64,000 bases of DNA from a virus (IMGVR_UViG_3300013383_000023:35845-99844), one strand, 5' to 3'; numbered from the stretch's first letter, positions 5,351 to 56,309 are shown. Program-made: numbers and translations. Notes: a model not told the origin generated them from the letters alone.

Positions 5351-8300
5351 TAACAATTAGCAGCAGAATACATTTGAAGGCGGAATGAATTCCGATACTT
5401 CAGATACTAGACTTTCTCCGAATTAGTATAGAGAAGCTAGAAATGTTAGACTTGTTACTAATACTGGTAATAATTCTGCAGAAATTCACATGATAGAAGG
5501 CGTTGCTAAAGTTGGCGATCTGTATAATACAAAATAGATTCTCGCTACTACAAGTATCCGTGATTATGGAATTATAGTTGCAGACACATCCTCCGATACT
5601 AAATCGTTTAATGTATTCTACTTTAAAAATAAGAATAATAATGTAGAATTAGAACATTATGATTTTGGAGACATAAAACAAGTATTTAAACAGAATATAA
5701 GCGGTAATTTATAGAAGCCTGTAGATATTACTTGTAGATGGGAGAATGATAATCTACTTAAATTATATATAGCGGATGGCAAAAATCCAATGATGCTTAT
5801 TAATATATTTAAAAATTATGATGCAAATATAAGTATCGATGATTTAAGTATATACCCATCTGTAATTTTTAGTAAGCCAATATTTGAAGGATTTATTAAC
5901 GGGACACTTGAAGGCGGGTTATACCAATATTCATACAGGCTATATAATAAAAATGGATAGGCATCAGAAATATCTCCAGCCACTAATCTAATACCAATGG
6001 TATCATAGTCTGGTGATTACTATAATGGAGTTGAACAGGGTAAACCTTCTGGAAACGGAATTTAGATAAGCATCGATGTTAACTATAATAAACTTGAATA
6101 TATTCAAATAATCCGTACTCATTATGTTGAAGCTGGACAAGATCCTATTATAGAAATTATATACGATTCAAAGCTTACAGATGATTCATTTGTTTTTTCT
6201 GATTATGGAATAAAAGCGTATTAGACATTGACTCTTGAAGAATACAATTCTATGTCTGGAGAACATATCATTCCAAAAACAATAGAATCTAAGAATGATT
6301 ATTTGTTTGCAGGATGTATTAAAAAGTTTGAATCATACGATAATAACATAAAATCTGTATTTAACAATTTTGACGCCAGGTCATATTCGTGCGACATAGA
6401 TGGATATGTTACGCTGTATAATCAGAATGAATAGTTAGAGTCAAGATTTAAAATAGATGAAATTCCGGAACTCAATGACAATAATAAAGAATGGGATTGC
6501 ATAAATAAGACTGGCAAATACTATGATGGAAACAGTCTCGAATATGGAGGTAGGGGAAAATACATAAGTTGGAAGTTTGTAACTGCAGATTTATATGAAG
6601 ATACTACTCCGTGTGAAAAGAATACACTCGATAACGACTGTGTTTTATATGATAGTTAGCAAGAGTATTATATACACAACTAGGGCAAAGACATGGTTCC
6701 TAATGTAGCTTATAATGAATATATAGGAACTGTATTACCTTGTATAAGAAAGAAATCTGAAAAAGTACATAAGATAACAACTCATACTATAAAACGTAAT
6801 GGAGGTGCTGGATCTTATTATTATATTAATCTAAATGGCGTTAATTGGGAAAATGAATTTAGTCCTAATTATGGAGATCCATCAGTAGCATATTCTTTAA
6901 AATCATTAAGACGAGGAGAAACGTATAGATACGCAATTGTGTTTTACGATAGATTCGGATTAACTACTGAAGCTAAATGGATAGCAGATATAAAAGTTCC
7001 AGAACTGTATGATAATGGATTTAATACATTCACGGCACACGGTGGAACTGGAGACATAATATGCGAATCGAATGGATTCCGTTCAACAAGATGTGATTTA
7101 GTTACGCATCCTATTGGCATTAGATTCGAAGTAAATCTTCCAGATGAAATTCGAAATAATATAATTGGTTACGAAATAGTAAGATGTAATAGATCTGAAT
7201 AGAATATACGTAATCTTATGTAGGGCGTATTAGCTAGACCTATTAATGTAAAAGGCTATATGGATGGTGTAAGAACAGAAAAGTCTTATACTCCTACAGG
7301 ATATTTATCTACTTGTAGATATTGGACTGGCTCTCAAATAAGATACGCAAAAGGACAAAGCGCTGTTGACGAAGATGCTAAAAACGGAATTATTTATGAA
7401 TCTGATAATTCTGAAAACTTTAATTTGTATTAGTTTATATCGGCAGAAACAACGTTTCAACCAGATAGTGCTGAATACTTACTTAAAAATAAGAATGTGA
7501 CGCTAGCTGCTCAAAGGTATTTGTTCGGACAAAGTTGGGATCAACCTATAAATTCATGGAGTGGAACAGAATCTTACGCTACAAATTTGAATAAAATTGC
7601 ACTCGGCAGAATTGTAAAACCTGGCCCATATAATACAACCGTTAGATTCGGTGGAGTGTCATCTCCTAATTATAGAGACAGTAATAGACACGACTTAGAA
7701 AATGTGTATGGATTCGGGACTCAATCTTCAGCAAGCGTATTATTCCCATTTGATGTAGCTATAAAAAGACAAGGAATGGAATCTACTGACGAATTTAGAC
7801 ATTCTTGGTCAATGGCCATCTCGGATAAATATCAGCAATGGTATCAGAATTCGTATTTCGACTTTAATAAAAATTCCAAACGTGCATATTCTATAGTTGG
7901 TTCAAATATTTCAGATATAACTCCTTATTGCTTTTCTTACATAAAATTATATGAGCAATCTGATGATATAACATATAGGCAAACGAATACTTCTCATAAC
8001 GGAAGAATGACAACATTTTCAGCGTTTACTGGAGATTATGATAATGGAAATACATAGCAGTTTAGAAGCCTATATAATCAATATCCATATCATCTCAGTA
8101 AAGTTCAAAATGTAACTGTTGGAATTAATGATTGTAAGATGGCTTCAACTTATGATTATTATAAGTTATTTAATGAAAGTACTGATGGTAATTCGGAAAA
8201 TAAATCTATTCAGTTTAATTATTCAAATCAAGATAGTGTTGATGGATTTACTTATTACAACAACGTTGTAGAAATAGCAATTGGTCAATCGTTGGATGAA

Positions 8301-40182: not shown

Positions 40183-40259
40183 GCGCCGTTCCAGGAGTTG
40201 AACCTGGTAATCTAGCCATTAAATGTGGCTTGCATTGAACCGAAAATGCTATAACGACA
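40183..40259 (-). tRNA. Atypical tRNA-Lys(UUU)-like gene (A33, weak acceptor stem)
   Basis: Cloverleaf with D stem GCAT/ATGC, anticodon arm AGCCA-CATTTAA-TGGCT and T arm CCAGG-TTCAACT-CCTGG. Confidence 0.55.
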
Positions 40260-40263
40260 AATG

Positions 40264-40347
40264 TACCGCAAGCGAGACTTGAACTCGCACGACCATATGG
40301 TCATCAGATTTTAAGTCTGAATTGTCTACCAATTCCAACATTGCGGC
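40264..40347 (-). tRNA. trnL: tRNA-Leu(UAA)
   Basis: Acceptor GCCGCAA/TTGCGGT, anticodon arm TCAGA-CTTAAAA-TCTGA, long variable arm, T arm GCGAG-TTCAAGT-CTCGC, discriminator A. Confidence 0.92.
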
Positions 40348-45808: not shown

Positions 45809-45830
45809 AGTTCTAAGACTCTTGATTAGA

Positions 45831-45937
45831 AGAGGTAGAGGAATCAAACCTCCCAGTAACCTTACACCAAAGTTCGACGATCAGGGTCATTCACCAACAT
45901 TATTATTAAGATCATCTATTACTGTACCATAACCTCC
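45831..45937 (-). ncRNA. tRNA-like element A (acceptor plus T arm, no D stem)
   Basis: GGAGGT-TATGGTA-CAGTAA...TTACTG-GGAGG-TTTGATT-CCTCT-ACCTCT. Confidence 0.65.
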
Positions 45938-45984
45938 AAGAATCTATCGTTTCACAACGACGGTTCTTTACCACTAAACGGAAG

Positions 45985-46043
45985 AGAATACAGAGGAATC
46001 CAACCTCTTACATTCTCACGAATGCCACGACTGTGTGTATTCT
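45985..46043 (-). ncRNA. tRNA-like element B
   Basis: AGAATAC...GCATTC-GTGA-GAATGT-A-AGAGG-TTGGATT-CCTCT-GTATTCT. Confidence 0.6.
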
Positions 46044-46086
46044 GGCTAAAGAAAAACAAAATATATAAATTAAATAAAAACAGTTG

Positions 46087-46199
46087 TGGAGAGGTGGGAG
46101 TCAAACCCACTACGAGCCCGTAAGAATCACATCGTATACTGAAACAATTGCTCGATTAATAATAGTATTGCATGATAAAACTCGTATTCCAAACTCTCC
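46087..46199 (-). ncRNA. tRNA-like element C
   Basis: GGAGAG-TTTGGAA-TACGAGTT...GGCTCGTA-GTGGG-TTTGACT-CCCAC-CTCTCC-A. Confidence 0.7.
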
Positions 46200-46245
46200 T
46201 TGTAAATCGTACTGACTTAAAGCTCTGACGATTTATATATTGTGT

Positions 46246-47103
46246 TTATGCTGCCTTTAACTCAGCATTCTGCTGTGATATATCCAATATCTTTGCAGAA
46301 TTCTTTGAAGGTATATTACACGTCTGCAATATAGGCTTCATGATAGCAGAAATATGATTAATTGCGTCCGGTTGATCTATATGATGAACCTTGAATCCAC
46401 AATAGAGTCCTCTTCTAAACTCTGTAAGTTCTGACCTAAGAAACTTATCTCCGAGTTTATAAGCATCTGTTGTAGCTTTTATATACGCTTTTTCTGCTGT
46501 TTGTCTTTTTCTAAATCTACCGTAGAATAACGTATGATCTTCTGGTTGAAGTTTATACGGATCTCCCTTGATAGTAGTTAAGACCATATATCGTTTACTT
46601 CTCTCACGCTCGGTAACCATTATCTCACTTACAATCTTGCTAAACACATCACTGCGCATTTTGTTATGTTCGTCAAGACTATTCATGTAAATAAGCTTAT
46701 CTTTATCAGAAAGTTTATCGATATCTTTTAGTTCTGGACCAGGATTTTTCTTATCCCATTTATTCAGACGATTAACTGCTACACCATGAAGATAATCATT
46801 GTGCGTCAGTTTCGTACTGGATGCTTTAAACGTTGGTGTCCAATTTTTCGGTTGCTTAAAACTTCCAGCTTTGTTCTTTTCCATATTAGCTAAATAACGT
46901 ATTTTAACGTCTTCTGCTGCCTTTTTAAGAGTCTTGCCTATAACATATGTCACTCGGCTAGAAACAGGCCGTGAAATGCAAATTAAATTGCCTTCTTGGT
47001 CATATTTTGGTTTGTTTACGGACTCTCTAAAGAATACAAGATTTTTATACGTAAAATTATTTTTATTTGCCAATTTATTTAAAGTTTTCTTATTCGTTTT
47101 CAT
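46246..47103 (-). CDS. Hypothetical basic protein
   Basis: 285-aa Lys-rich ORF ending ...AELKAA. Confidence 0.75.
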   Translation of the reverse strand: MKTNKKTLNKLANKNNFTYKNLVFFRESVNKPKYDQEGNLICISRPVSSRVTYVIGKTLKKAAEDVKIRYLANMEKNKAGSFKQPKNWTPTFKASSTKLTHNDYLHGVAVNRLNKWDKKNPGPELKDIDKLSDKDKLIYMNSLDEHNKMRSDVFSKIVSEIMVTERERSKRYMVLTTIKGDPYKLQPEDHTLFYGRFRKRQTAEKAYIKATTDAYKLGDKFLRSELTEFRRGLYCGFKVHHIDQPDAINHISAIMKPILQTCNIPSKNSAKILDISQQNAELKAA

Positions 47104-47142
47104 ATTGATTATGTTTTAATTATACATGTTGCTTTGATAGTG

Positions 47143-47198
47143 AAGGTGTAACTGAGTCGAACAAGTTCGTGATTTTTCGCACGTTACCATAAACACCC
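47143..47198 (-). ncRNA. tRNA-like element D (minimal)
   Basis: GGGTGT-TTATGGTAA-CGTG..CACG-AACTTG-TTCGACT-CAGTT-ACACCT. Confidence 0.6.
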
Positions 47199-47209
47199 AA
47201 TATAATTAA

Positions 47210-47761
47210 CTATAGAGTAAATTCCGTAGTAAATGTTTCGTTGTCATCGATCTCTAGTTCAATCTTGGCATTCTTATTGAATTCTTCAATATCTGCCTTA
47301 AGAGCTTGAATCTTAATATCAATGTCGCCAATAAGCTGCGCACACTTAGCGTTAGTAAACACCTCATCCTTACTGATGCCTTTCTTACTAAGTTTTGCCT
47401 TAGTCGCAGGATCAATAGTATGTTTAGTTTTTACAATAGTAAGATGCGTTTTCTGCTCATTGAGCTCATTAAGCATATAAATACGATAATAGTGATCGTT
47501 TTTAATATCCTTAAAATTAAACTTCTTAATTCCACTATTAATAGCATTCATAAGAAGCTTTGATTTTACACGATTAATTGCCATTTGAGTAATCTGATTA
47601 TAAAGAGACTTCAAATCATATTTACGATATCCATCTTTCACTGCCTTCTTAGACATAAGATTAGTAGACTCAATAGTTTTCCAATAAGAAGAAATCTTCT
47701 TACTAAGATTATCACGTGTATTAATAATATTTGTAGAGTTCAAATTAATTGATTTATTCAT
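47210..47761 (-). CDS. Hypothetical coiled-coil protein
   Basis: Likely start MNKSINLN at 47761, because the track extension runs through a tRNA-like RNA. Ends at TAG. Confidence 0.7.
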   Translation of the reverse strand: MNKSINLNSTNIINTRDNLSKKISSYWKTIESTNLMSKKAVKDGYRKYDLKSLYNQITQMAINRVKSKLLMNAINSGIKKFNFKDIKNDHYYRIYMLNELNEQKTHLTIVKTKHTIDPATKAKLSKKGISKDEVFTNAKCAQLIGDIDIKIQALKADIEEFNKNAKIELEIDDNETFTTEFTL

Positions 47762-47814
47762 AAGCTTGATATATTTTAAGTTAATAATAAATCTTGAACT
47801 ATACGTCTTCCTAG

Positions 47815-47868
47815 AAGGTGCCCAGGAGTCGAACCTGGGTTTTATCTGGGGTTTCCAGCCACACACCC
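47815..47868 (-). ncRNA. tRNA-like element E (minimal)
   Basis: GGGTGT-GTGG-CTGG..CCAG-ATAAAAC-CCAGG-TTCGACT-CCTGG-GCACCT. Confidence 0.6.
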
Positions 47869-47988
47869 GTCCATCATAACCATTAAAATACATTAGTAGC
47901 TGGTTAGACTACTAATGTTATATTGTATGCAATTAAACATATATAATAATCTAATTAATATTCGTTTTAACTGGGGTCTCCAGTACTA

Positions 47989-48552
47989 CTAATCAATCTG
48001 ATCAAATTGTACGTGTCCTTTCACATTTATTGTTTCTCCAAATGGATTAAGGGCAAACTTATGAGAGAATGCCATAGGATCGATATGAATGTTAATCTTT
48101 TGTGCTTTATCTGTATTGAAATCTCCTTCCGTGGGGTCTCCACTGTCGATTCCCATGACTTTACAGCTCAAGGGACTATTCTTCATACCAAACTTTGTAG
48201 CTATTAACAATTGGTCAATAACATACGAGTAATCCTCATTTTGTATACCCTTAGTTGCAATAACTCCCAAAAGACCATTTAAAATCTTTTGGTTTGTATT
48301 GTTCTTTTGTCCGCTAATTGCAGACGCTACTTTCATTGCAAACTCGTTAAAGGAAATAGTTCGCTCGTCTCCGATTAAACGATTCCACCATTTTACGCAG
48401 GTCTTGCCAAATGTTATAGAACCATCTTCACTTACACTACACGAACTATATACTTCCTTCTTGTCGTTATCTACAAGAATCCCCTTAATTGTAGGATCTT
48501 CAAGTAGATATTGTACAAGCAACGCGTCTGCACGAGACAGACGGTTGTTCAT
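47989..48552 (-). CDS. Hypothetical protein
   Basis: 187-aa ORF starting 2 nt after the upstream stop. Confidence 0.75.
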   Translation of the reverse strand: MNNRLSRADALLVQYLLEDPTIKGILVDNDKKEVYSSCSVSEDGSITFGKTCVKWWNRLIGDERTISFNEFAMKVASAISGQKNNTNQKILNGLLGVIATKGIQNEDYSYVIDQLLIATKFGMKNSPLSCKVMGIDSGDPTEGDFNTDKAQKINIHIDPMAFSHKFALNPFGETINVKGHVQFDQID

Positions 48553-48554
48553 AA

Positions 48555-49181
48555 TTATTCCTCAACTGTAGCTTCAACGTGAACTGTTGCATCAAGTGCC
48601 GGATCGTCAAGAATACCGCACTGCTTCTTGTATTCTGTTACATATGCAGTATCCTTACTAATCGTCTTTCCAAGCAGCGATGATTGACCCTGCAGGTCTG
48701 AAATCAAATTATCAACGCGAGCCTTCTCATTCTTATTCAAACGATTAACCGCTTCAGTAAGCTTTTCAAGACACTTAAAGTAAATTGGCTCACCAGACTT
48801 GGCTATATTTTCAATTGCCATCTTAATATTCTCATTTGTAGGCTCTATGTCGAACTTCGGCATCTGCAATGGCAAGGTAATTTCAATTTCCTTACCAGCC
48901 TTATCCTTAATGCCCTTGTTGAGAATAATCATAGGAGTACCATCAATGTCCTGAGCGTACTCCATACTTATTACATCGATCTTACGAATCTTATAACGAT
49001 GGACAGGTCGTATCGGCAGAAGTTCTCCATTTTCCGAAACGTTTTCTCGCTTCTCGTTGAACTTCAGATCAACATTTACACAAGATACTGTGAACAACTG
49101 ACGGCCAAACATTGAACCATACGCCATAACAACTTTACGCCCCCTTGGGCTAATTTCTACGTTAATATTTACATTATTCAT
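48555..49181 (-). CDS. Hypothetical protein
   Basis: 208-aa ORF with an A-rich leader. Confidence 0.75.
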   Translation of the reverse strand: MNNVNINVEISPRGRKVVMAYGSMFGRQLFTVSCVNVDLKFNEKRENVSENGELLPIRPVHRYKIRKIDVISMEYAQDIDGTPMIILNKGIKDKAGKEIEITLPLQMPKFDIEPTNENIKMAIENIAKSGEPIYFKCLEKLTEAVNRLNKNEKARVDNLISDLQGQSSLLGKTISKDTAYVTEYKKQCGILDDPALDATVHVEATVEE

Positions 49182-49194
49182 AATAATTTTCCTT

Positions 49195-51170
49195 TTTGAT
49201 TTCGTGATTGATTCACCACGAAAATTATTTTAATCTGTTGTGTTCATAAGAACTATTAATGCCTTACGGCAATTCGCTTATACTCTTTATTACACAAATT
49301 TGGTTAACCGTGCATATGAGAGGTCGTTTTTGTAATTAGTAATACACAAACCGCACAACTATGTTGCTATGGACGAATTATCGACTACTTTGTTCGTCTA
49401 TCTATTACTGTGTATTACTAGTTATAAAGCTATAAACTCCACAATTGGTGCAGTACAGTCATGTACTAGTAATACGAATTATTTTATTATACTTTATAAA
49501 ATTACTTGAAATAACCGTCAAAGGCTCTAATGTGTCCAAGCATCGTGGAGAGTTCCAGTGCTGAGTCATTCCAAGTTACTATTATGTCTGCTATTTGTAC
49601 AGTCTTTCGATACTGATTAGGATAGCTCCCCTGTTCTATTTCGGCAAAGGCATTTTGTAGGAAGAACAATCAATAACCTATTTCCTTCTTAACGTGAGGA
49701 GTACGTTTCTTTATCGGACCATCTACTCTTCAGAAGAGTCTTTGATGCTACGGCTTTTTACTTCTTTGCTGAACAATGCTGTTTATGTTTCAAAACACCC
49801 ACATCGACCATTATTCCAGGATTTCTTTGTTTATCGTGCGCGAATATCCAGGATTCCAACCTGTTACGGCCCATGCTTTATTCGATACGCTACCGATACT
49901 TATTGCACTCGTTTTCCGCTGTACGCTACGCGATTACTCGCCTCGCTTATTCTACGTAGAGACAGTACGTAGAATTTCTATGGGTTCCCGTAAGTCTGCG
50001 TCAAGTTTACACATACATTTCACTGCATATTTTACCTTATAGACCTTTTGACGATAACGGTTGGCACTATTATTGCTCTGGCTTATTACATATTTTATCT
50101 TTACAACAGACATGTGAATATGCTCAAGTCGAACCGCAATAAGATTGTTAGACAATATAAATTACCAGCTTACTATTCTGTTTGTTTTTATTCTGTAGTA
50201 CTTTGAACTACACTTCTACACGTTTGAATTTCTGTTTCATATTTAGAGTTATACTTACAGCACTGTAAAGATATTTGTAAGTGTACTAACTTCTAATTGT
50301 TTGTTTCGGTTATCCATGTATTAAGAAGATGAAAGGTAGGTCAATATATCTGGAGTGATATATCTCGAATACAATTCACGTTACGCTTTGTACGCTTCCA
50401 AGCGACAGATGTTTAGTCTGCATTAAGAACTTCTTTTGACTGTAACGTAGTCGCCGTTTATCATATCCATATTAGATTGCTAATGTCTTTTCTGGATATT
50501 ACCATCAGTCTTTTTCTCACGGACTCGTGGCGTGGGTCGGTCTTTCCGACACAAGCTTCCTCTGCTTGCTCGTCATTTAACTTTTATATACCGCATAAAC
50601 GACTAAAGGCTGGCGGTCAGTTATTACAAATAGGGAAAAGATTTTCAGCATACACATTACCCGATCACTGCCACCCATTAAACTGAGATGTGACGAATCT
50701 AACGTCAAGGATTTTGTTTAAGCACTATATTTACGATATAGCTGTAGGTAGATTCTTACAGTCTCTCTTAACTAGTCTATTCTTTTAGCTATTTTTCCTC
50801 CCTTCATAATGGCTTTGGAGACCATGAACACTAGAGTAAGCGTAGTACAAATCTATTAGGTTTGGAAGCTAATAGTTGCGGCTCGTGTGTCGTTCGCTCA
50901 TACTTGTGTACCTCAATGTATAAGATTCCGATACGGTTCATTATGCGCTTCTTGCGACTTATGCGTTTCACTGTTTATCCATCACCAAACGGTTCTCATG
51001 GCAGTTAGGAGTTGATACAACGCTTCTCCTACTTGATATTTGCTTTTCACACAAATATCATTTCGTCTTACCTTTTGCGTATTCTCGCCCTTTGAGAGGG
51101 TTAACATATTCTCAGACCAAGTAATTATTACATCGATTCTTAGGCTAATGAGACCTAATATGAATCTGAA
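49195..51170 (-). ncRNA. Candidate very large structured non-coding RNA (~1.9 kb), or a cluster of RNAs
   Basis: No credible ORF. Dense hairpins, some with GNRA loops on the - strand (49260-49271, 49600-49615), others at 49949-49975, 50536-50550 and 51034-51060. A 12-bp stem pairs 49337-49348 with 49409-49420. Confidence 0.6.
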
Positions 51171-51174
51171 CTAA

Positions 51175-51540
51175 TTATTCGATAATGCGTACACTATCAT
51201 TAGCAGAGTGATTTTCTTCAACTTGCTCTTCAGTTGCCTGTTTTGCTATAAATACAAGAGGATAATGGATTATTTTCTCTTGTACGACACGATAGGGTAC
51301 AGGTACTCTAATTGTATCTGGATTAGAAACTTCATGTTGTGTTACAGAATCAATTTTATTCTGCAACTTATTAGTTAGACTCTCTACAGCATTCTTGTAC
51401 ATAGTCAGCTGCATGTCTACGGGCAATACCACTTGTTGTGCAGGTGGTGATGCCATTGGTTTAGTATCATCATTATGACCAATAATCCAGCCAAATGTTA
51501 ATAATGCTAAACAACTTGCTATTGTTACTACTTTTTTCAT
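51175..51540 (-). CDS. Membrane-anchored hypothetical protein
   Basis: N-terminal hydrophobic helix; preceded by the ATTATCAAAATG leader motif. Confidence 0.75.
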   Translation of the reverse strand: MKKVVTIASCLALLTFGWIIGHNDDTKPMASPPAQQVVLPVDMQLTMYKNAVESLTNKLQNKIDSVTQHEVSNPDTIRVPVPYRVVQEKIIHYPLVFIAKQATEEQVEENHSANDSVRIIE

Positions 51541-51713
51541 TTTGATAATGATTTATTTTTCAACATGATAGTTGTGTTCTATGTCTACTGGACCGTCATC
51601 TTCGCTTCCGTTTGAGACTGCAGTTCTCACACGCCTTAAGACTTCCTCCAGGACATCCACGGCTACCTTTAATTTGCGCTTTATTAAACTTCTGGCAGCT
51701 ACGAAGAACGCGG

Positions 51714-53267
51714 TTATTTTTTTGCCACATCCTCCGCATTTGAAGTTCCAGAATTTGAAGCTTCCTTTGCGGACTCTCCAGATTCAGCCTCCTTCGCAGC
51801 TTCGCTTTTTTCAAGCGGTTTAATATTAGCATCACTATACTTCTCAACCTTGTCAGATTGAGGCAAGAACAGATTGCCAATTACGCCAACTTTTTGTTGA
51901 ACATTGTACATAAGATTTACAAACGACTCTTCGATAATAGACGTCTTTGTTCCAGCAATTTCCTTAGCGAAGTATTCGCTTCTAGTAAAGAAATATAATT
52001 TCTTAATAGACCCAGGTGTACCAGGCTTATAAGCGTCTACTACCTTTTCTGGAATAGCCTTATCAAAATGTGTTAGATAATGAACCGCCTTATTGGCAGT
52101 ATCAAGCTCTGTCTGCAAAACCTCTTTTGCGGACTTAGTAAGCTTACCTTTAAGTTTATCTGTGTTTTCTGCGGTAACATAGGTGTTATACCACAAAACG
52201 ATAAACTTAACAATTTCTGCCACCTCTTCATCAGATAAAGCGCATTCTCCTCTGAATTTAAGAGCGCAGCGCATAGACAGAAATGCTCCAACCGGAGATT
52301 CGTCTTCAACACAGTATTTTGCAAGATTTGAACCAATTTGCCGAAACATCAATGTAGGTTCTGTAATGCTAATTGCGTCCTGAATCCAATCATCAATGTT
52401 TCGAGAATCAAGTACAGCTCTCTTCTCGCTACTATTACCATCTCTTTCGAGTTCAGCATATCTATAATCTTTAATAAACTTAATAGCTGTAAGAATATTG
52501 TTTTCAACACTCCTGCTATTACGTTTGGCAAAGATCTTATTTAATGCTGCAACAAGCTGATCTTTTGTAGTAATCTTTTTAGGATCCATTTCTACTTCGG
52601 CATCAGCCTTCTTTTTGTCGTCTTGAATCTTTTTGGTTACATCTTCTGGAATATCTTCCGGTTTGAAATCAAGTACTCCTTCTTCTCCTGTTGATTGACT
52701 GATTCCAGCCTTCACCAAATCTTCTGGAGTTGGAAGTCTTAATTTATCGGCATCAGGAAGTTTTACACCAAATGTACTTGCAAGATTCTGAAGCTCGGGG
52801 AATGAACTCTTCCGAATAAGCAATGATATCGGTGTGGTAGTGTTAACTACCTGTTCCAACAATGTTCCAAATACAATAGTGTCCACAATTCTACTTGCTC
52901 CATTAAGGAACATTGGCGAATACTTTTGAGCTGCTGCTGAATCCTTACGGTACTTATCGTCCATAATACCAGCAAGCCTTACATATCCGTCTGCAGACAA
53001 TCCAGAACCAGATGTTTGTTTCATTACTCCAAGGATAGAAGCAAACTCATTTTGTTCTGCTTTATTTGCAGTTGGTACTGGGGCTGATTCTGATGGATTT
53101 TCCTTTGGTGTAGGAATATCTGGAATCTGCCCTGTTGGCTTCTCTTCATTTGTCTCTGCAACTTGAGTTGCTGCTTCAACTGCATCTTTCTTACCTTCAG
53201 CTACTGGAGCTGTTTTAACGTTATTGTTAACTGTATTAACGTTCTTCTTTTTATTCTTCTTACTCAT
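51714..53267 (-). CDS. Hypothetical protein (517 aa, low-complexity termini)
   Basis: Long ORF with the leader motif and biased codon usage. Confidence 0.85.
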   Translation of the reverse strand: MSKKNKKKNVNTVNNNVKTAPVAEGKKDAVEAATQVAETNEEKPTGQIPDIPTPKENPSESAPVPTANKAEQNEFASILGVMKQTSGSGLSADGYVRLAGIMDDKYRKDSAAAQKYSPMFLNGASRIVDTIVFGTLLEQVVNTTTPISLLIRKSSFPELQNLASTFGVKLPDADKLRLPTPEDLVKAGISQSTGEEGVLDFKPEDIPEDVTKKIQDDKKKADAEVEMDPKKITTKDQLVAALNKIFAKRNSRSVENNILTAIKFIKDYRYAELERDGNSSEKRAVLDSRNIDDWIQDAISITEPTLMFRQIGSNLAKYCVEDESPVGAFLSMRCALKFRGECALSDEEVAEIVKFIVLWYNTYVTAENTDKLKGKLTKSAKEVLQTELDTANKAVHYLTHFDKAIPEKVVDAYKPGTPGSIKKLYFFTRSEYFAKEIAGTKTSIIEESFVNLMYNVQQKVGVIGNLFLPQSDKVEKYSDANIKPLEKSEAAKEAESGESAKEASNSGTSNAEDVAKK

Positions 53268-53370
53268 AATTTTGATAATTTGAGATTTTATCTCAGCCTT
53301 CCTTACAGACTAATTTTGTTAAATACTTTTGCTTATAATATTATTGTAATGATTGAATTATAAATCTTCT

Positions 53371-53760
53371 TCAACTTGTATCATAAACAAATGGTTGATC
53401 TCTACTCATGATAGCCTTTGAACTTGTATGTCCTGCTACTGTATTAAATACAATGATTTGATAATCCTTACCTGTTGATTTTGTCTCAACGAATGTATCT
53501 TCGCACTCTTCTACGGCAGGAGCTACCTGCAACGAGCACGTCGATGTCAACATGGGATTATTTGCCAAATCTTGTTTAATAATACACTTCTTAGTCTCAT
53601 TTACAACATGAGCGTTCGAAGTTGCAGCACGTCCAACAAATCCGGCTAACATGCTTAAGAAACAAGCCCAAAATAATCTATTAGACTTGTTCAATTTTGC
53701 TATTGCGATGCACACAATTGCACCAACAACTAATAACATAATTTGCAGCATGTTAAGCAA
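53371..53760 (-). CDS. Two-TM membrane protein (possible anti-sigma factor)
   Basis: Two N-terminal hydrophobic helices; overlaps the end of the sigma gene. Confidence 0.6.
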   Translation of the reverse strand: MLNMLQIMLLVVGAIVCIAIAKLNKSNRLFWACFLSMLAGFVGRAATSNAHVVNETKKCIIKQDLANNPMLTSTCSLQVAPAVEECEDTFVETKSTGKDYQIIVFNTVAGHTSSKAIMSRDQPFVYDTS

Positions 53761-54322
53761 TTTTTAATTTGTTAAACACTTGTTGTCGGAATCTAAATAG
53801 GATTGATTTTATTGTTCCTATTGGTGTTCCTAAACATTTTGAAATATCTGCAATTGTATAACCATCTGTATAGTACATTGTAAGTACTTTCCTCTTAATC
53901 GGAGTTAGATTTGTGAATTTAGACGTGATGCTATCAAGTGTCATATTATTAACAATGTCACTTTCATGACGATTTTGAGTTTGATTAAAATCAATTCTCC
54001 AATCGTTAGGATCAACATACACCTGCTTGCCCTTAATTGTACGCAGATAATCTATTGCAGTATTTTTAGTTAAAACTCGTAACCATCCTCCAAAAGAGTC
54101 GTAATTTACGAATTTAGAGAGTTTATCATGAACTTTCACAAAAACAACATTAGCTATATCTTTAGCTTCGTCTTTATCTTTTATATAGTCATATAATATT
54201 CCTTCTACAAAAGATTTATAATTGTAAAAAATCTGATTAAAAGCTAGTTTATCACCAGCTTTCGCCTTTTTGATAATGGCAATCTCTTTATCTGTAATTT
54301 TTGGTAAAGTAGATTTATCCAT
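53753..54322 (-). CDS. ECF-type sigma-70 factor
   Basis: Region 2 'GDKLAFNQI...EAKDIANVVFVK...SFGGWLRVLTKNTAIDYLR'; region 4 'DGYTIADISKCLGTPIGTIKSILFR'. Confidence 0.9.
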   Translation of the reverse strand: MDKSTLPKITDKEIAIIKKAKAGDKLAFNQIFYNYKSFVEGILYDYIKDKDEAKDIANVVFVKVHDKLSKFVNYDSFGGWLRVLTKNTAIDYLRTIKGKQVYVDPNDWRIDFNQTQNRHESDIVNNMTLDSITSKFTNLTPIKRKVLTMYYTDGYTIADISKCLGTPIGTIKSILFRFRQQVFNKLKIA

Positions 54323-54410
54323 ATCAACAAATTTAACCGGTTATTAAGTTGTCACTGCTATATGAGACGGCGCTCGTTAGTACGTACAAGTTAAATCAAT
54401 AACTTACACG

Positions 54411-54827
54411 TTAAAATGGTAACATTTCATTAAACACACTATTAAATTCTAATTTGAGTCTCAAACATAAACTACAATGTAATTTACGTTTTTCGGCATC
54501 ATTTATAGATTTGCATTTATTTAGCATACCAGTAGCTATTCGAAGTAATACTCCAAATGTCTCTTCTGATATACTTCCAAATTTTAATACAATACTTCTG
54601 TTAACAAATTCATTTATATTCCTTAATTCGATATTTGTATAAGCATTAAGCCACAATGTATCTAATTGATTATTATTTATTAACATGTATTGATCAAGAT
54701 TCTTATTTTTATCAAGATAATTATATATCTGATATTTTAGCCAATCTTTTTGAATGAATTTTAATAATGGTGATTTAATTAATAGTTCACTCGAATAACG
54801 ACCCTTTTCCATGCATAACTTTATCAA
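54411..54827 (-). CDS. Hypothetical protein
   Basis: 138-aa ORF ending EMLPF; overlaps the upstream gene. Confidence 0.65.
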   Translation of the reverse strand: MIKLCMEKGRYSSELLIKSPLLKFIQKDWLKYQIYNYLDKNKNLDQYMLINNNQLDTLWLNAYTNIELRNINEFVNRSIVLKFGSISEETFGVLLRIATGMLNKCKSINDAEKRKLHCSLCLRLKLEFNSVFNEMLPF

Positions 54828-55308
54828 ATTTATTAATTAACTTACATGCCGCTTCGGCTGTACAGTTACATCTTACTTTAATGACGCTTACCATCTTTGT
54901 AAATGATATTTCAGATTGATCCATCTTTAAGTATATATTATATAATTCAAGTATTTCGTCACTTGTAAGTTTAATAGAATTTGTGTAAATGCCACGATAT
55001 ATTGGCAAGTTGCCGTAATCTACAGGAAGTAACATAAATAACCATCTTCCTCTGTCATACATTATACTATTCAATACATCATTGTCTGCAATTAATTCTT
55101 TTTTCTGTAATACAGACTTAATGAATTCAGAATCATATTGTTCTTCATCTTGCGCGTGCATAAAGTTATTTAACAATAATCCACGCTTTGCTGTTAAATT
55201 GGGATACCACCCAACAAATTGTACTATACATACGATTTTGTTATTTTGAGCGATGTACGTACCAGCTTGTTCTGGGAATGTTTTCCAATCAATGTTTCGT
55301 ATAATCAT
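54787..55308 (-). CDS. Hypothetical protein
   Basis: 173-aa ORF within the operon. Confidence 0.7.
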   Translation of the reverse strand: MIIRNIDWKTFPEQAGTYIAQNNKIVCIVQFVGWYPNLTAKRGLLLNNFMHAQDEEQYDSEFIKSVLQKKELIADNDVLNSIMYDRGRWLFMLLPVDYGNLPIYRGIYTNSIKLTSDEILELYNIYLKMDQSEISFTKMVSVIKVRCNCTAEAACKLINKFDKVMHGKGSLFE

Positions 55309-55309
55309 A

Positions 55310-55630
55310 TTATTTACAATTTAGTTCTTCTTGTCTTATCCATCCTTCAATGTTCTCAAGGTTTATTTTGTCGTTATCAGACAAATCTTTCCAAGGAATT
55401 AATCTATGAAATACATCTGATTCATTTTGGCCAGGATATCTCATAAACATATAATTTAGAATTTTAGTCTTTTCACTATTGTTACTAGGACTACTTGAAT
55501 AATTTCCGAAGTACGATTTATAAATAAGATTTAATACTCGTGTATATATCTTATATTTATACAATATAACACAGATACATCCACATTGTTGTAATCGTTC
55601 TCGTACTGCTTGTTTATACCCTTTCTTCAT
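55310..55630 (-). CDS. Hypothetical protein
   Basis: 106-aa ORF with the ATTATCAAAAATG leader. Confidence 0.7.
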   Translation of the reverse strand: MKKGYKQAVRERLQQCGCICVILYKYKIYTRVLNLIYKSYFGNYSSSPSNNSEKTKILNYMFMRYPGQNESDVFHRLIPWKDLSDNDKINLENIEGWIRQEELNCK

Positions 55631-55670
55631 TTTTGATAATGATTAAAGTAATAATGTTAATTAACTCTAG

Positions 55671-55753
55671 AGAGAGGCTCGGGCTCGAACCGAAATTTAC
55701 GCTAATAGAGAAACAGACATTAATATGCTGTCAGCCTGATTACTGAACCTCTC
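55671..55753 (-). ncRNA. tRNA-like element F, abutting the tmRNA coding piece
   Basis: GAGAGGT...GCTGACAG...CTATTAGC...TCGG-TTCGAGC-CCGA-GCCTCTC. Confidence 0.6.
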
Positions 55754-55755
55754 AT

Positions 55756-56150
55756 TTGGAAGTTTAACGACATTCCAGGTCGATGCTTGTTGTTATTGCT
55801 GCACTTAGCTCAAGACTTTACTTACGCTACGCAAGTGTAGTCTACAATATTACTATTGTTCTGATTTATTATTTACTATAAGTCTCGTATTTACCTTTCG
55901 AACGCATCAAAAGCCAATTCATCCCCATTGAATAGTATACCCATATTCACATATAGATATACTTGCTATAAATACTATTTTCTCAAACTGTATTTATATT
56001 ATTAGTAATCCTTAAAATGCATTGTAATACTTTCAGTGAATAATAATAAAACAATTTAAGTTATAAAAATAGATAATCTAAGCGGTGGAGATGCGCGGAC
56101 TCGAACCGCGGTCTACGTCCGTATTCTAATACTCAAACGACTTTAGTTTC
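55756..56150 (-). ncRNA. ssrA: Circularly permuted two-piece tmRNA (acceptor piece ~56150-56084, IVS 56083-55927, coding piece 55926-~55756)
   Basis: GGGGATG pairs with upstream CATCTCC-A-CC, giving G3.U70. T arm CGCGG-TTCGAGT-CCGCG; P2 TGCGTTCG/CGGACGTA. Tag ORF at 55863-55822 with a stop-codon hairpin, followed by two pseudoknots. Confidence 0.88.
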
Positions 56151-56309
56151 TTTATTGTAAATGTATAGTTAGGTCAGTTCTATACATTCGATTTAAGCTT
56201 ATTTAAATTCGTTTTAAGACATTTCTGAAGTCTTTGTGGTTAATTACTCCATTTAACAATATACTCTGCCTTAAAACGAATTATTTAACTTACATCATAA
56301 CGTTGGATT

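Follow-up and report, generated by a model that had tools for sequence, protein, structure and literature searches.

The phage that carries the elements described here is a gut crAss-like phage (Suoliviridae, Oafivirinae-like). Within the window, the whole 64,000-nt stretch of DNA that was analysed, the minus strand is the coding strand for every gene from 36 to 64 kb, and it is on this sense strand that six short tRNA-like elements (el1 to el6), two real tRNA genes and a two-piece tmRNA gene are found (Table 1). A preliminary description had placed the six elements on the same strand, with boundaries that agree with ours within 1-2 nt. The end of el1 lies 18 nt 5' of the ATG of the DNA polymerase gene (45811), el4 is located between ORFs of 183 and 285 amino acids, el5 lies 53 nt 5' of the start of the former ORF (47761), and el6 is separated by 40 nt from the next ORF (ATG 55630). 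Conserved leader motifs are found directly 3' of the elements, a conserved terminator-like hairpin is located just 5' of el5, and a twister-P1 ribozyme is matched on the minus strand (47.8 bits, E 1.5e-9). A scan for sigma-70 promoters gave 87 matches as compared to 87.9 expected from shuffles, with a consensus that is unsuited to Bacteroidales or phage polymerases. Since Pfam and PHROGs named only the DNA polymerase among the neighbouring proteins, the neighbours give no hint of function.

Table 1. Elements and RNA genes in the window (positions counted from its first nucleotide)
Feature	Position	Strand	Description
el1	45830..45938	-	top-half tRNA mimic, long variable central helix, T loop TTTGATT
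el2	45985..46043	-	59-nt mimic, 7-bp acceptor AGAATAC/GTATTCT, GTGA-capped hairpin, T loop TTGGATT
el3	46087..46200	-	113-nt mimic, acceptor GGAGAG/CTCTCC, linker TTTGGAA, T loop TTTGACT
el4	47143..47199	-	56-nt mimic, acceptor GGGTGT/ACACCT, linker TTATGGTAA, 4-bp hairpin, T loop TTCGACT
el5	47815..47869	-	54-nt mimic, acceptor GGGTG/CACCT, hairpin CTGG/CCAG, 6-bp T stem, loop TTCGACT
el6	55671..55754	-	83-nt mimic with D-like hairpin, directly 3' of the tmRNA coding piece
tRNA-Leu(UAA) + tRNA-Lys(UUU)	40183..40347	-	real tRNAs, in this phage's primase slot
tmRNA gene, two-piece (permuted)	55822..56142	-	RF04321, 33.4 bits, E 1e-4, below gathering score

The architecture that had been ascribed to the six elements is confirmed in outline. 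Each combines an acceptor stem of 5-7 bp with a T arm, and between the two lie a GG-containing linker or a D-like hairpin and a variable middle; the T stems measure 4-6 bp, and the T loops have the form TT(C/T/G)GA... Several details have to be amended: the acceptor, given before as 6-7 bp, mostly consists of 6 bp plus a mismatched first pair and reaches 7 bp in el2 only; the term D-arm-less does not apply to el6, whose 4-bp D-like hairpin carries the GG within its loop; and the T arm, while present in all six, has an imperfect stem in el4 that is perfect in a close relative. Read along the minus strand, el1 is composed of GGAGGT, TATGGTA, a long helix CAGTAA..TTACTG, the T arm GGAGG-TTTGATT-CCTCT and ACCTCT, and el2 of AGAATAC, ..GTCGTGG, CATTC-GTGA-GAATG, AGAGG-TTGGATT-CCTCT and GTATTCT. 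The central domain of el3 is long and AT-rich with a closing helix TACGAG/CTCGTA, and its T arm is GTGGG-TTTGACT-CCCAC. The hairpin of el4 is CGTG..CACG and its T arm contains one extra base, el5 combines the linker TGTGG with the T arm CCCAGG-TTCGACT-CCTGGG, and in el6 the D-like hairpin TCAG-TAATCAGG-CTGA is accompanied by the acceptor GAGAGG/CCTCTC, 37 extra nt and the T arm TCGG-TTCGAGC-CCGA. Position C56 of the T loop, near-universal in tRNA, is replaced by U or G in el1 to el3. Neither the mimics nor the phage's own tRNAs have an encoded CCA.

A strict T-arm motif was defined by a perfect 5-bp stem, a G..C closing pair and the loop TTNRANN. It is present ten times on the minus strand of the window and once on the plus strand, as compared to a mean of 0.67 (sd 0.78, maximum 4) in 100 dinucleotide shuffles. 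Thermodynamic prediction recovers the elements in part: the proposed shape is the minimum-energy fold in el1, el2 (z -2.98) and el5 only, it appears in el3 in the centroid fold only, and the T arm is absent from the computed folds of el4 and el6. Over the six elements, folding energy relative to shuffles is not significant on its own (z -0.25 to -3.0).

Canonical tRNAs they are not, as ARAGORN at its default settings and Rfam RF00005 find only the tRNA-Leu and the tRNA-Lys. A cloverleaf anticodon arm with its 5-bp stem and 7-nt loop is missing from the six, the middles, which are deleted in relatives, being hairpins with loops of 4-8 nt or long AT-rich helices. Intron-split tRNAs are rejected too, since the inserts of 4-75 nt are too short for group I introns and an Rfam intron is absent. 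When introns were allowed or thresholds lowered, ARAGORN made many implausible calls, which were discarded; a tRNA-Pro with a 766-nt 'intron' that includes the 3' half of el5 has its 5' half within an ORF, and el5 has a local acceptor partner.

The elements are maintained by selection on their pairing. The preliminary description had stated that the sequences differ while the pairing is kept, and comparison with one close relative bears this out. Among 80 stem pairs, assigned by eye in pairwise alignments with this single relative, 54 are unchanged, 20 show double compensatory changes, 4 carry a single change and still pair, and 2 are broken, so that 24 of the 26 changed pairs are still able to pair (binomial P 8e-9 if the chance of pairing is 6/16). 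The relative is the sole one from an IMG/VR scan using the DNA polymerase, and a metagenome scan with the 285-aa ORF found no further close relatives. Compensatory pairs are distributed over the acceptor (three), the T stem (two) and the base of the central helix (two) of el1; over the acceptor (three, plus two wobble changes) and the hairpin (one) of el2; and over the acceptors of el3 and el6 (two each). In the relative, the T stem of el4 is perfect (AACTG/CAGTT) and compensatory changes are found in its acceptor and hairpin, and el5 shows a compensatory change of C-G to U-A in its T stem. The middles, by comparison, are rewritten or deleted (el3, el6), the centre of el3 differing in both sequence and length. 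That stem pairs are kept while middles diverge or vanish argues that the mimics are not decaying pseudogenes.

For the search in more distant relatives, a covariance model (R1) proved unsuitable as the family search that the preliminary description had envisaged. With seven 43-nt minimal elements from relatives as its basis, it is poor in information and cannot span long middles, and its best match in the window, el2 (15.4 bits, E 0.25), lies amid noise; MAFFT did not align elements of unequal length in register. We therefore relied on a descriptor, controlled for by strand, shuffles and offsets. In 80 relatives (1.12 Mb) the strict T-arm motif occurs 253 times in sense and 7 times in antisense orientation, and only 59 of these motifs fall within tRNAs called by ARAGORN. 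Among 157 T arms outside tRNAs, 66 have an acceptor partner matching at 7/7 positions at most 130 nt away, as compared to 17 once the 3' strand is shuffled and 5 in the offset control. Minimal mimics of 41-50 nt occur in many lineages. This bears further on the view that the elements are remnants of a former tRNA array which decay neutrally. Relatives do contain real tRNA arrays at the corresponding place, the acceptor of el3 matches that of a relative's tRNA-Ser, and the middles appear unconstrained; still, neither the strand bias and the minimal forms nor the retained pairing fits decay, which we regard as most improbable. The random decay of tRNA genes, named beforehand as the opposing case, is thus rejected on the 20 double compensatory changes.

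In the relatives, mimics and real tRNAs share fixed slots. Thirty distinct loci in front of the DNA polymerase gene contain 19 mimics and 11 ARAGORN tRNAs (Met, Asn, Ser or Leu, plus two without an assigned type), and the element ends 24-29 nt 5' of the ATG, with a conserved leader behind it. The primase slot is occupied by a mimic or a tRNA in 36 of 50 loci, mostly ending 22-28 nt 5' of the start codon (range 17-30, one at 57); in our phage it is the tRNA-Leu/tRNA-Lys pair that takes this place, ending 16 nt 5' of the start of the primase-like ORF (40166). The el5 slot holds tRNA-Gln, tRNA-Thr or mimics in 13 of 53 relatives, and the slots before the 187-aa and 208-aa ORFs contain neither mimic nor tRNA. 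This alternation at a fixed distance before the polymerase and primase starts lends indirect support to the earlier idea that the elements may be processing signals, as does the position of el6 and its homologues next to the tmRNA gene. To say that they punctuate the transcript is, however, an overstatement, as only 4 of the 24 intergenic gaps of at least 25 nt on this strand contain mimics; a fifth such gap contains the two real tRNAs.

Phage tRNA genes are frequent hot spots of recombination and module exchange, and one might therefore ask whether the elements act at the level of DNA, their RNA fold being incidental. One slot can hold different tRNAs or mimics depending on the relative, and there are signs of exchange between strains with about 90%-identical flanks: the el1-el3 block does not align at 80% identity, and in three metagenome strains the middle of el6 is replaced with a short D-like hairpin. 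Yet selection on DNA would not require compensatory changes that keep RNA pairing, nor would it confine the elements to the sense strand, and we hold this explanation to be very unlikely.

The surroundings of el6 deserve separate mention. The tmRNA, 70 nt upstream of it, consists of an acceptor piece ending in ..CATCTCC-ACC, a spacer of about 170 nt and a coding piece that begins with GGGGATG, and it carries the pair G3:U70. Covariation supports its acceptor pairing when cr131_1, cr130_1 and Dulem virus 42 are compared, G3:U70 and A73 being present in every one, and the relatives' counterparts are annotated as tmRNA. In cr131_1 and cr130_1, as well as in the close relative and three metagenome strains, the tmRNA coding piece is likewise adjoined at its 3' end by an element of the el6 type, and in Dulem virus 42 a tRNA-Leu-like gene is found in this position after the tmRNA. 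The six elements resemble the tRNA-like domain of tmRNA in having an acceptor and a T arm, a stemless GG-containing substitute for the D loop, and a helix where a tRNA has its anticodon arm, but they differ from it in lacking a tag reading frame, pseudoknots and the conserved A73-CC. As G3:U70 is present in the tmRNA of the four phages compared and in none of the six elements, we reject their assignment to this class.

But what would these elements do? We are inclined to believe that they are signals derived from tRNA and addressed to the RNase P and RNase Z of the host, similar to the t-elements of plant mitochondria, although both the cleavage and the identity of the host enzymes are what we infer. 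That mimics occupy spots where related phages have real tRNAs indicates that they are probably cutting marks. They would have kept only what the enzymes of tRNA end maturation read, the coaxial helix of acceptor and T arm, with the GG-containing stand-in for the D loop presumably propping the elbow. Probably co-transcribed inside long minus-strand messages of the replication region, the mimics would be released by RNase P, acting at their 5' side, and by RNase Z, or another activity that trims tRNA 3' ends, acting directly 3' of the discriminator base. The cuts would split the polycistronic RNA and provide the downstream message with a short, defined leader, which before the DNA polymerase would measure 18 nt in this phage and 24-29 nt in relatives, and the 3' terminus of the tmRNA coding piece would be set by the cut at el6. 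Neither a CCA-adding enzyme nor an RNase Z-type gene was found in the phage and CCA is not encoded, so that host enzymes must handle its tRNAs; the twister-P1 match on the same strand makes RNA cleavage of these transcripts plausible. Against cleavage we count the 11 stacked pairs that acceptor and T stem form in the mimics (mostly with 6-bp acceptors), since the length gauged by RNase P and RNase Z is about 12 pairs, as well as the missing C56 in el1 to el3, the weak folding energies and the few gaps that are occupied.

The conserved leaders could also be promoters, in which case the elements would be located at transcript 3' ends, outside a polycistron. As uncleaved structures of stability or insulation at the ends of transcription units they would then shield the preceding RNA against degradation by 3' exonucleases or prevent the downstream leader from folding. 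Both the leader motifs directly after the elements and the terminator-like hairpin 5' of el5 would agree with such a role, for which however a generic hairpin would be enough, and neither the retention of T loop, GG linker and acceptor/T-arm geometry nor the filling of the same slots by real tRNAs would be explained; we consider it distinctly unlikely.

Then again, el1 to el3 stand in tandem, uninterrupted by an ORF, and compensatory change maintains each of the three, even though one cutting mark would suffice, and this suggests that the excised RNAs may matter themselves. Trimmed by RNase P and RNase Z and provided with CCA, they might be decoys, sponges or cofactors of proteins that recognise the top half of tRNA, examples being immune nucleases that act on tRNA 3' tails, acceptor-modifying toxins, the CCA-adding enzyme, EF-Tu or SmpB. 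The divergence of the el1-el3 block between strains with otherwise similar flanks would also resemble an arms race. However, few phage RNAs would face a very large pool of host tRNAs, the fixed register before starts and the interchange with tRNAs would be superfluous for a decoy, and G3:U70 or another recognisable aminoacylation identity is present in no element, which makes it unlikely that such RNAs are the product. A more specific form of the idea, that CCA-tailed mimics would shield the tRNA pool as anti-defence decoys for nucleases that disable the acceptor or tail, appears improbable to us. Cas12a3 of Bacteroidetes, reportedly described in 2026 as an immune nuclease that inactivates tRNA at its 3' tail or acceptor end, would be one such target. 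If this were true, the fast turnover of sequence with kept shape would reflect an arms race.

Coming back to cleavage by tRNA-maturation enzymes, there are several systems with which the elements can be compared. The tRNA-punctuation model of mitochondria is said to have been put forward by Ojala, Montoya and Attardi in 1981. A precedent for tRNA-like processing signals is provided by the t-elements of plant mitochondria (Forner et al. 2007, PMC1920247). Like these, the phage elements are non-decoding mimics of acceptor and T arm that lie on the sense strand at gene boundaries, in positions common with real tRNAs, and cutting by RNase P and/or RNase Z is thought likely in both. Different from them, t-elements are organellar with mapped transcript ends, whereas the phage mimics are known from sequence, occupy only some junctions and include tandem copies. 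The role proposed for el6 after the tmRNA coding piece has a parallel in mascRNA and the MEN-beta tRNA-like structure, which at the 3' ends of the long non-coding RNAs MALAT1 and NEAT1 recruit RNase P and thereby generate the 3' terminus of the RNA that precedes them, the released piece being trimmed by RNase Z and given CCA; these are, however, eukaryotic, nuclear and experimentally proven, and have a full cloverleaf-like fold with an anticodon-like arm. In phage T4, the stable RNA species 1 and 2 (rnaC, rnaD) are non-decoding RNAs with tRNA-like ends that share a transcript with tRNAs and owe their maturation to the tRNA-processing enzymes of the host, but they are restricted to the tRNA cluster, whereas the crAss-like mimics are placed before protein genes. 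YrlA-type Y RNAs of bacteria and phages contain a tRNA-like module, and for one of them both cleavage by RNase P and addition of CCA are described (Chen et al. 2014, PMC4201824). They differ in module orientation and in having a Ro60-binding helix and an adjoining Ro60 gene, and we reject this class too, as the 99.8-kb phage genome gave no TROVE match and the Rfam scans no Y RNA family. In the literature on tRNA-like or non-canonical tRNAs of crAss-like phages and Crassvirales and on tRNA-like processing signals of phages, we found no description of the elements.

If the proposed cuts are real, an abundant group of human and animal gut phages would use the tRNA-maturation enzymes of its hosts on its messages and on its own tmRNA. 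Such use of tRNA enzymes is known in organelles and for a few long non-coding RNAs of eukaryotes, and our literature search found no description of it in phages. It would explain why few tRNAs are reported in spite of the many sense T-arm motifs, why tRNA genes are located at fixed distances 5' of replication genes, and by which route a decoding tRNA may decay to a signal of 41-50 nt. For annotators the mimics represent a new class of feature, and for experimenters they are compact candidate substrates of RNase P and RNase Z.

The six tRNA-like elements el1-el6 lie in a crAss-like phage. Its virus record, of which the window comprises bases 35845-99844, is 99.8 kb long, and its DNA polymerase is 60-64% identical to those of the crAss-like phages cr131_1, cr130_1, cr272_1, cr273_1 and Dulem virus 42, the first four of which are classified in Crassvirales, Suoliviridae, Oafivirinae. 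All genes between about 36 and 64 kb point along the minus strand, and it is on this strand that the elements read as tRNA-like, in keeping with the sense orientation assigned to them in the preliminary description.

Elements and other features of the minus-strand region (window positions unless stated)
Feature	Position	Strand	Basis or remark
el1	45830-45938	minus	tRNA-like element
el2	45985-46043	minus	tRNA-like element
el3	46087-46200	minus	tRNA-like element
el4	47143-47199	minus	tRNA-like element
el5	47815-47869	minus	tRNA-like element
el6	55671-55754	minus	tRNA-like element
DNA polymerase	45811-43883	minus	PHROG 1252 match
Polymerase leader	45812-45829	minus	element to start codon
tRNA-Leu(UAA) and tRNA-Lys(UUU)	40183-40347		real tRNAs; ARAGORN, Rfam
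Two-piece (permuted) tmRNA gene with G3:U70	55822-56250	minus	Rfam match and comparison
285-aa ORF	46246-47103	minus	between el4 and el3
Hairpin, 11 bp, with U-rich run	47890-47918	minus	between 187-aa ORF and el5
ORF-free stretch, about 2 kb	49182-51174	minus	position conserved in all relatives looked at
Twister type-P1 ribozyme match	59231-59169	minus	in 367-nt intergenic gap
Seventh mimic	7881-7928 (genome)	plus	late-gene strand, about 27.9 kb ahead of window start

All six consist of an acceptor-type stem of 5-7 bp, a linker or hairpin carrying GG, a middle of highly variable size and a T arm directly followed by the 3' acceptor strand. The linker of el1-el5 is short and purine-rich (TATGGTA in el1 and el4, TTTGGAA in el3, ..GTGG in el2 and el5); its place in el6 is taken by a D-like hairpin of 4 bp whose loop carries GG. 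ARAGORN and Rfam, run on the window, called none of the six a tRNA, their tRNA calls being confined to tRNA-Leu(UAA) and tRNA-Lys(UUU), and CCA is encoded neither in el1-el6 nor in these real tRNAs. A strict T-arm descriptor (perfect 5-bp stem, G..C closing pair, loop TTNRANN) matched the minus strand of the window ten times and the plus strand once, against a background of 0.67 +/- 0.78 matches in 100 dinucleotide shuffles. The ten take in the two real tRNAs, the tmRNA, two other sites and every element but el4, which satisfies the descriptor if one mismatch is allowed. Since folding energy does not set the elements apart (z -0.25 to -3.0), the case for the elements is built on this motif excess and on comparative evidence rather than on thermodynamics. 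Outside the window, a seventh mimic (AGCTATG / GG-rich 16-nt linker / ATGTG-TTCGAGT-CACGT / CATAGCT) is likewise intergenic, the preceding ORF ending at about 7857 and the next starting at 8028.

The collections searched yielded a single close relative, a contig of 96.5 kb from human gut (loci L001, L112 and L113), whose polymerase is 92% and whose 285-aa ORF is 81% identical to that of the window. This ORF has no Pfam or PHROG match; to the eye, a CGFKVHHID..N..H stretch at its end resembles an HNH nuclease motif. The relative carries all six elements in unchanged order. Among 80 stem pairs, 54 are unchanged, 20 show two-sided and 4 one-sided changes that are still paired, and 2 are broken. 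Of the seven acceptor pairs of el2, three have been exchanged through changes on both sides and another two altered by single changes compatible with wobble pairing; the el1 acceptor GGAGGT/ACCTCT has become GGGAGC/GCTCCC with the linker TATGGTA kept. The middles of el3 and el6, on the other hand, are altered both in sequence and in length. Three metagenome strains have a short D-like hairpin in place of the el6 middle, and the interior of el1 and the block of el2 and el3 cannot be aligned at 80% identity, with flanks at about 90%. Neutral or random decay of tRNA genes, the case that would have undone the preliminary description, is rejected on account of pairing that is kept while middles are rewritten, 24 of the 26 changed pairs remaining paired in this one relative (binomial P about 8e-9, presuming site independence, with pairwise alignments and stems delimited by eye). 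On comparison of the sequences, the pattern of change is that of an RNA selected for its top-half shape only, that is, acceptor and T arm.

The family extends to distant relatives. With a profile built from five polymerases we obtained 80 additional loci (58-66% identity, 1.12 Mb), in which the T-arm motif occurs 253 times in sense and 7 times in antisense orientation, only 59 motifs lying inside ARAGORN tRNAs. A perfect 7-bp acceptor partner lies no more than 130 nt away from 66 of the 157 distinct non-tRNA T arms, as compared to 17 when the 3' strand is shuffled and 5 when it is read from a position 4 nt beyond. The elements grade continuously from near-tRNAs whose anticodon arm is spoiled to forms of 41-50 nt that contain an acceptor, an ATGGT-type linker, a T arm and nothing else.

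Where do these elements stand? The preliminary description took them to punctuate the early transcript; however, only 4 of the window's 24 minus-strand gaps of at least 25 nt contain a mimic (a fifth contains the two real tRNAs), which argues for specific slots instead. Before the polymerase gene, 30 distinct loci have an element with its discriminator 24-29 nt ahead of the ATG, namely 19 mimics and 11 ARAGORN tRNAs (Met, some of them initiator-type, Asn, Ser, Leu, and two to which no type was assigned); the spacing in the window is 18 nt. The primase slot is occupied in 36 of 50 loci, either by a mimic or by a real tRNA (Leu, Met, Trp, Lys, Pro); most of these stand 22-28 nt ahead of the gene (17-30, with one at 57). 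In the window this slot contains the two real tRNAs. The slot of el5, before the 183-aa ORF, is occupied in 13 of 53 loci, 12 times by mimics or a tRNA-Gln and once, in Dulem virus 42, by a tRNA-Thr according to ARAGORN, although our script had listed it as a mimic. No locus examined has an element at the start of the 187-aa or the 208-aa ORF.

The leaders between element and start codon of polymerase and primase are themselves conserved in the window and its relatives (15-29 nt). That of the polymerase reads ..AGAACC-N2-3-AGAGTC ATG, or has the hexamers in swapped order; that of the primase contains a palindrome, GCTTATAAGC or ACTTATAAGT, whose symmetry survives sequence change. These leaders could be translational operators or promoters, and the latter possibility counts against a role of the elements in processing, as does the terminator-like hairpin just ahead of el5, which is kept in the close relative with compensatory changes. 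A different leader, ..(C)ATTATCAAA(A) ATG, is common to many minus-strand ORFs (63833, 61590, 61302, 58549, 57140, 55630, 53267 and 51540), of which two (63833 and 55630) additionally have GAGTTAATTAACATTAT in common at a more upstream position.

el6 starts about 70 nt past the tag stop codon of a two-piece tmRNA. The Rfam permuted-tmRNA model matches 56142-55822 with 33.4 bits (E 1e-4); despite this score below gathering (47), comparison with relatives confirms the identity. In all cases the 5' acceptor strand (GGGGATG in the window; GGGCCAT, GGGCGTG and GGGGGAT in three relatives) finds its partner in a 3' strand located upstream of it. The acceptor pairing covaries in the four phages, with G3:U70 and A73 constant. 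The conserved tag frame ends in ..VDYT(H/C)VA (..IVDYTCVA in the window, ..VVDYTHVA in relatives), unlike the usual ..ALAA of bacterial tmRNA; the ARAGORN tag call, AAITTSIDLECR, is in a different frame. Both cr131_1 and cr130_1 carry a tmRNA annotation. The place after the coding piece holds an el6-type element in the relatives examined and a tRNA-Leu-like gene in Dulem virus 42 (locus L031, 3363-3985). An insert of about 540 nt, which contains an annotated 474-nt ORF, separates the tRNA-Leu(UAA)-like halves of the latter (5' GCCGTGA.., 3' ..TCACGGC) behind the CTTA of the anticodon loop, and the gene is possibly an intron-split tRNA.

Two further RNA candidates lie on the same strand. The twister match (47.8 bits against a gathering score of 67.2; E 1.5e-9 for 600 nt searched) suggests that minus-strand transcripts may be cut in more than one way. 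The ORF-free stretch, in which Rfam found nothing at gathering score, is a candidate for a large RNA with structure. T-arm-like hairpins that lack an acceptor partner lie in it at 50702 and 49859, the former (TGACG-TTAGATT-CGTCA) covarying to TGCTG/CAGCA in cr131_1 and cr130_1.

Among known systems, the closest are the t-elements of plant mitochondria (PMC1920247), the punctuation model of mitochondria, 3'-end signals of the mascRNA type, the tRNA-like domain of tmRNA and Y RNAs of the YrlA type (PMC4201824). Class tests of el1-el6 as tRNA, intron-split tRNA, tmRNA domain or Y RNA failed. Structurally they agree with the definition of a t-element-like signal, a class whose defining criterion is transcript ends and to which they are compared here by sequence. 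No description of such elements turned up in the literature on phages, crAss-like phages included.

Recognition of tRNA by RNase P, RNase Z and the CCA-adding enzyme relies on the elbow and on the acceptor helix stacked upon the T helix, and the conserved part of the elements is exactly what these enzymes read. The phage genome has no gene for a CCA-adding enzyme, an RNase Z-type enzyme or Ro60, and its tRNAs are thus necessarily handled by host enzymes in any event. Doubt comes from the three tandem mimics, each maintained though one cutting mark would do, from the 11 rather than 12 stacked pairs in most elements and from the absence of C56 in el1-el3. That excised mini-RNAs serve as decoys is unlikely, as they would compete with the host tRNA pool. 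On balance we lean slightly towards el1-el6 being processing signals for tRNA-maturation enzymes, and consider it quite probable that they are at least substrates of these enzymes, whatever selection acts on; at el6, a cut by RNase P on the 5' side would then generate the 3' end of the tmRNA coding piece.
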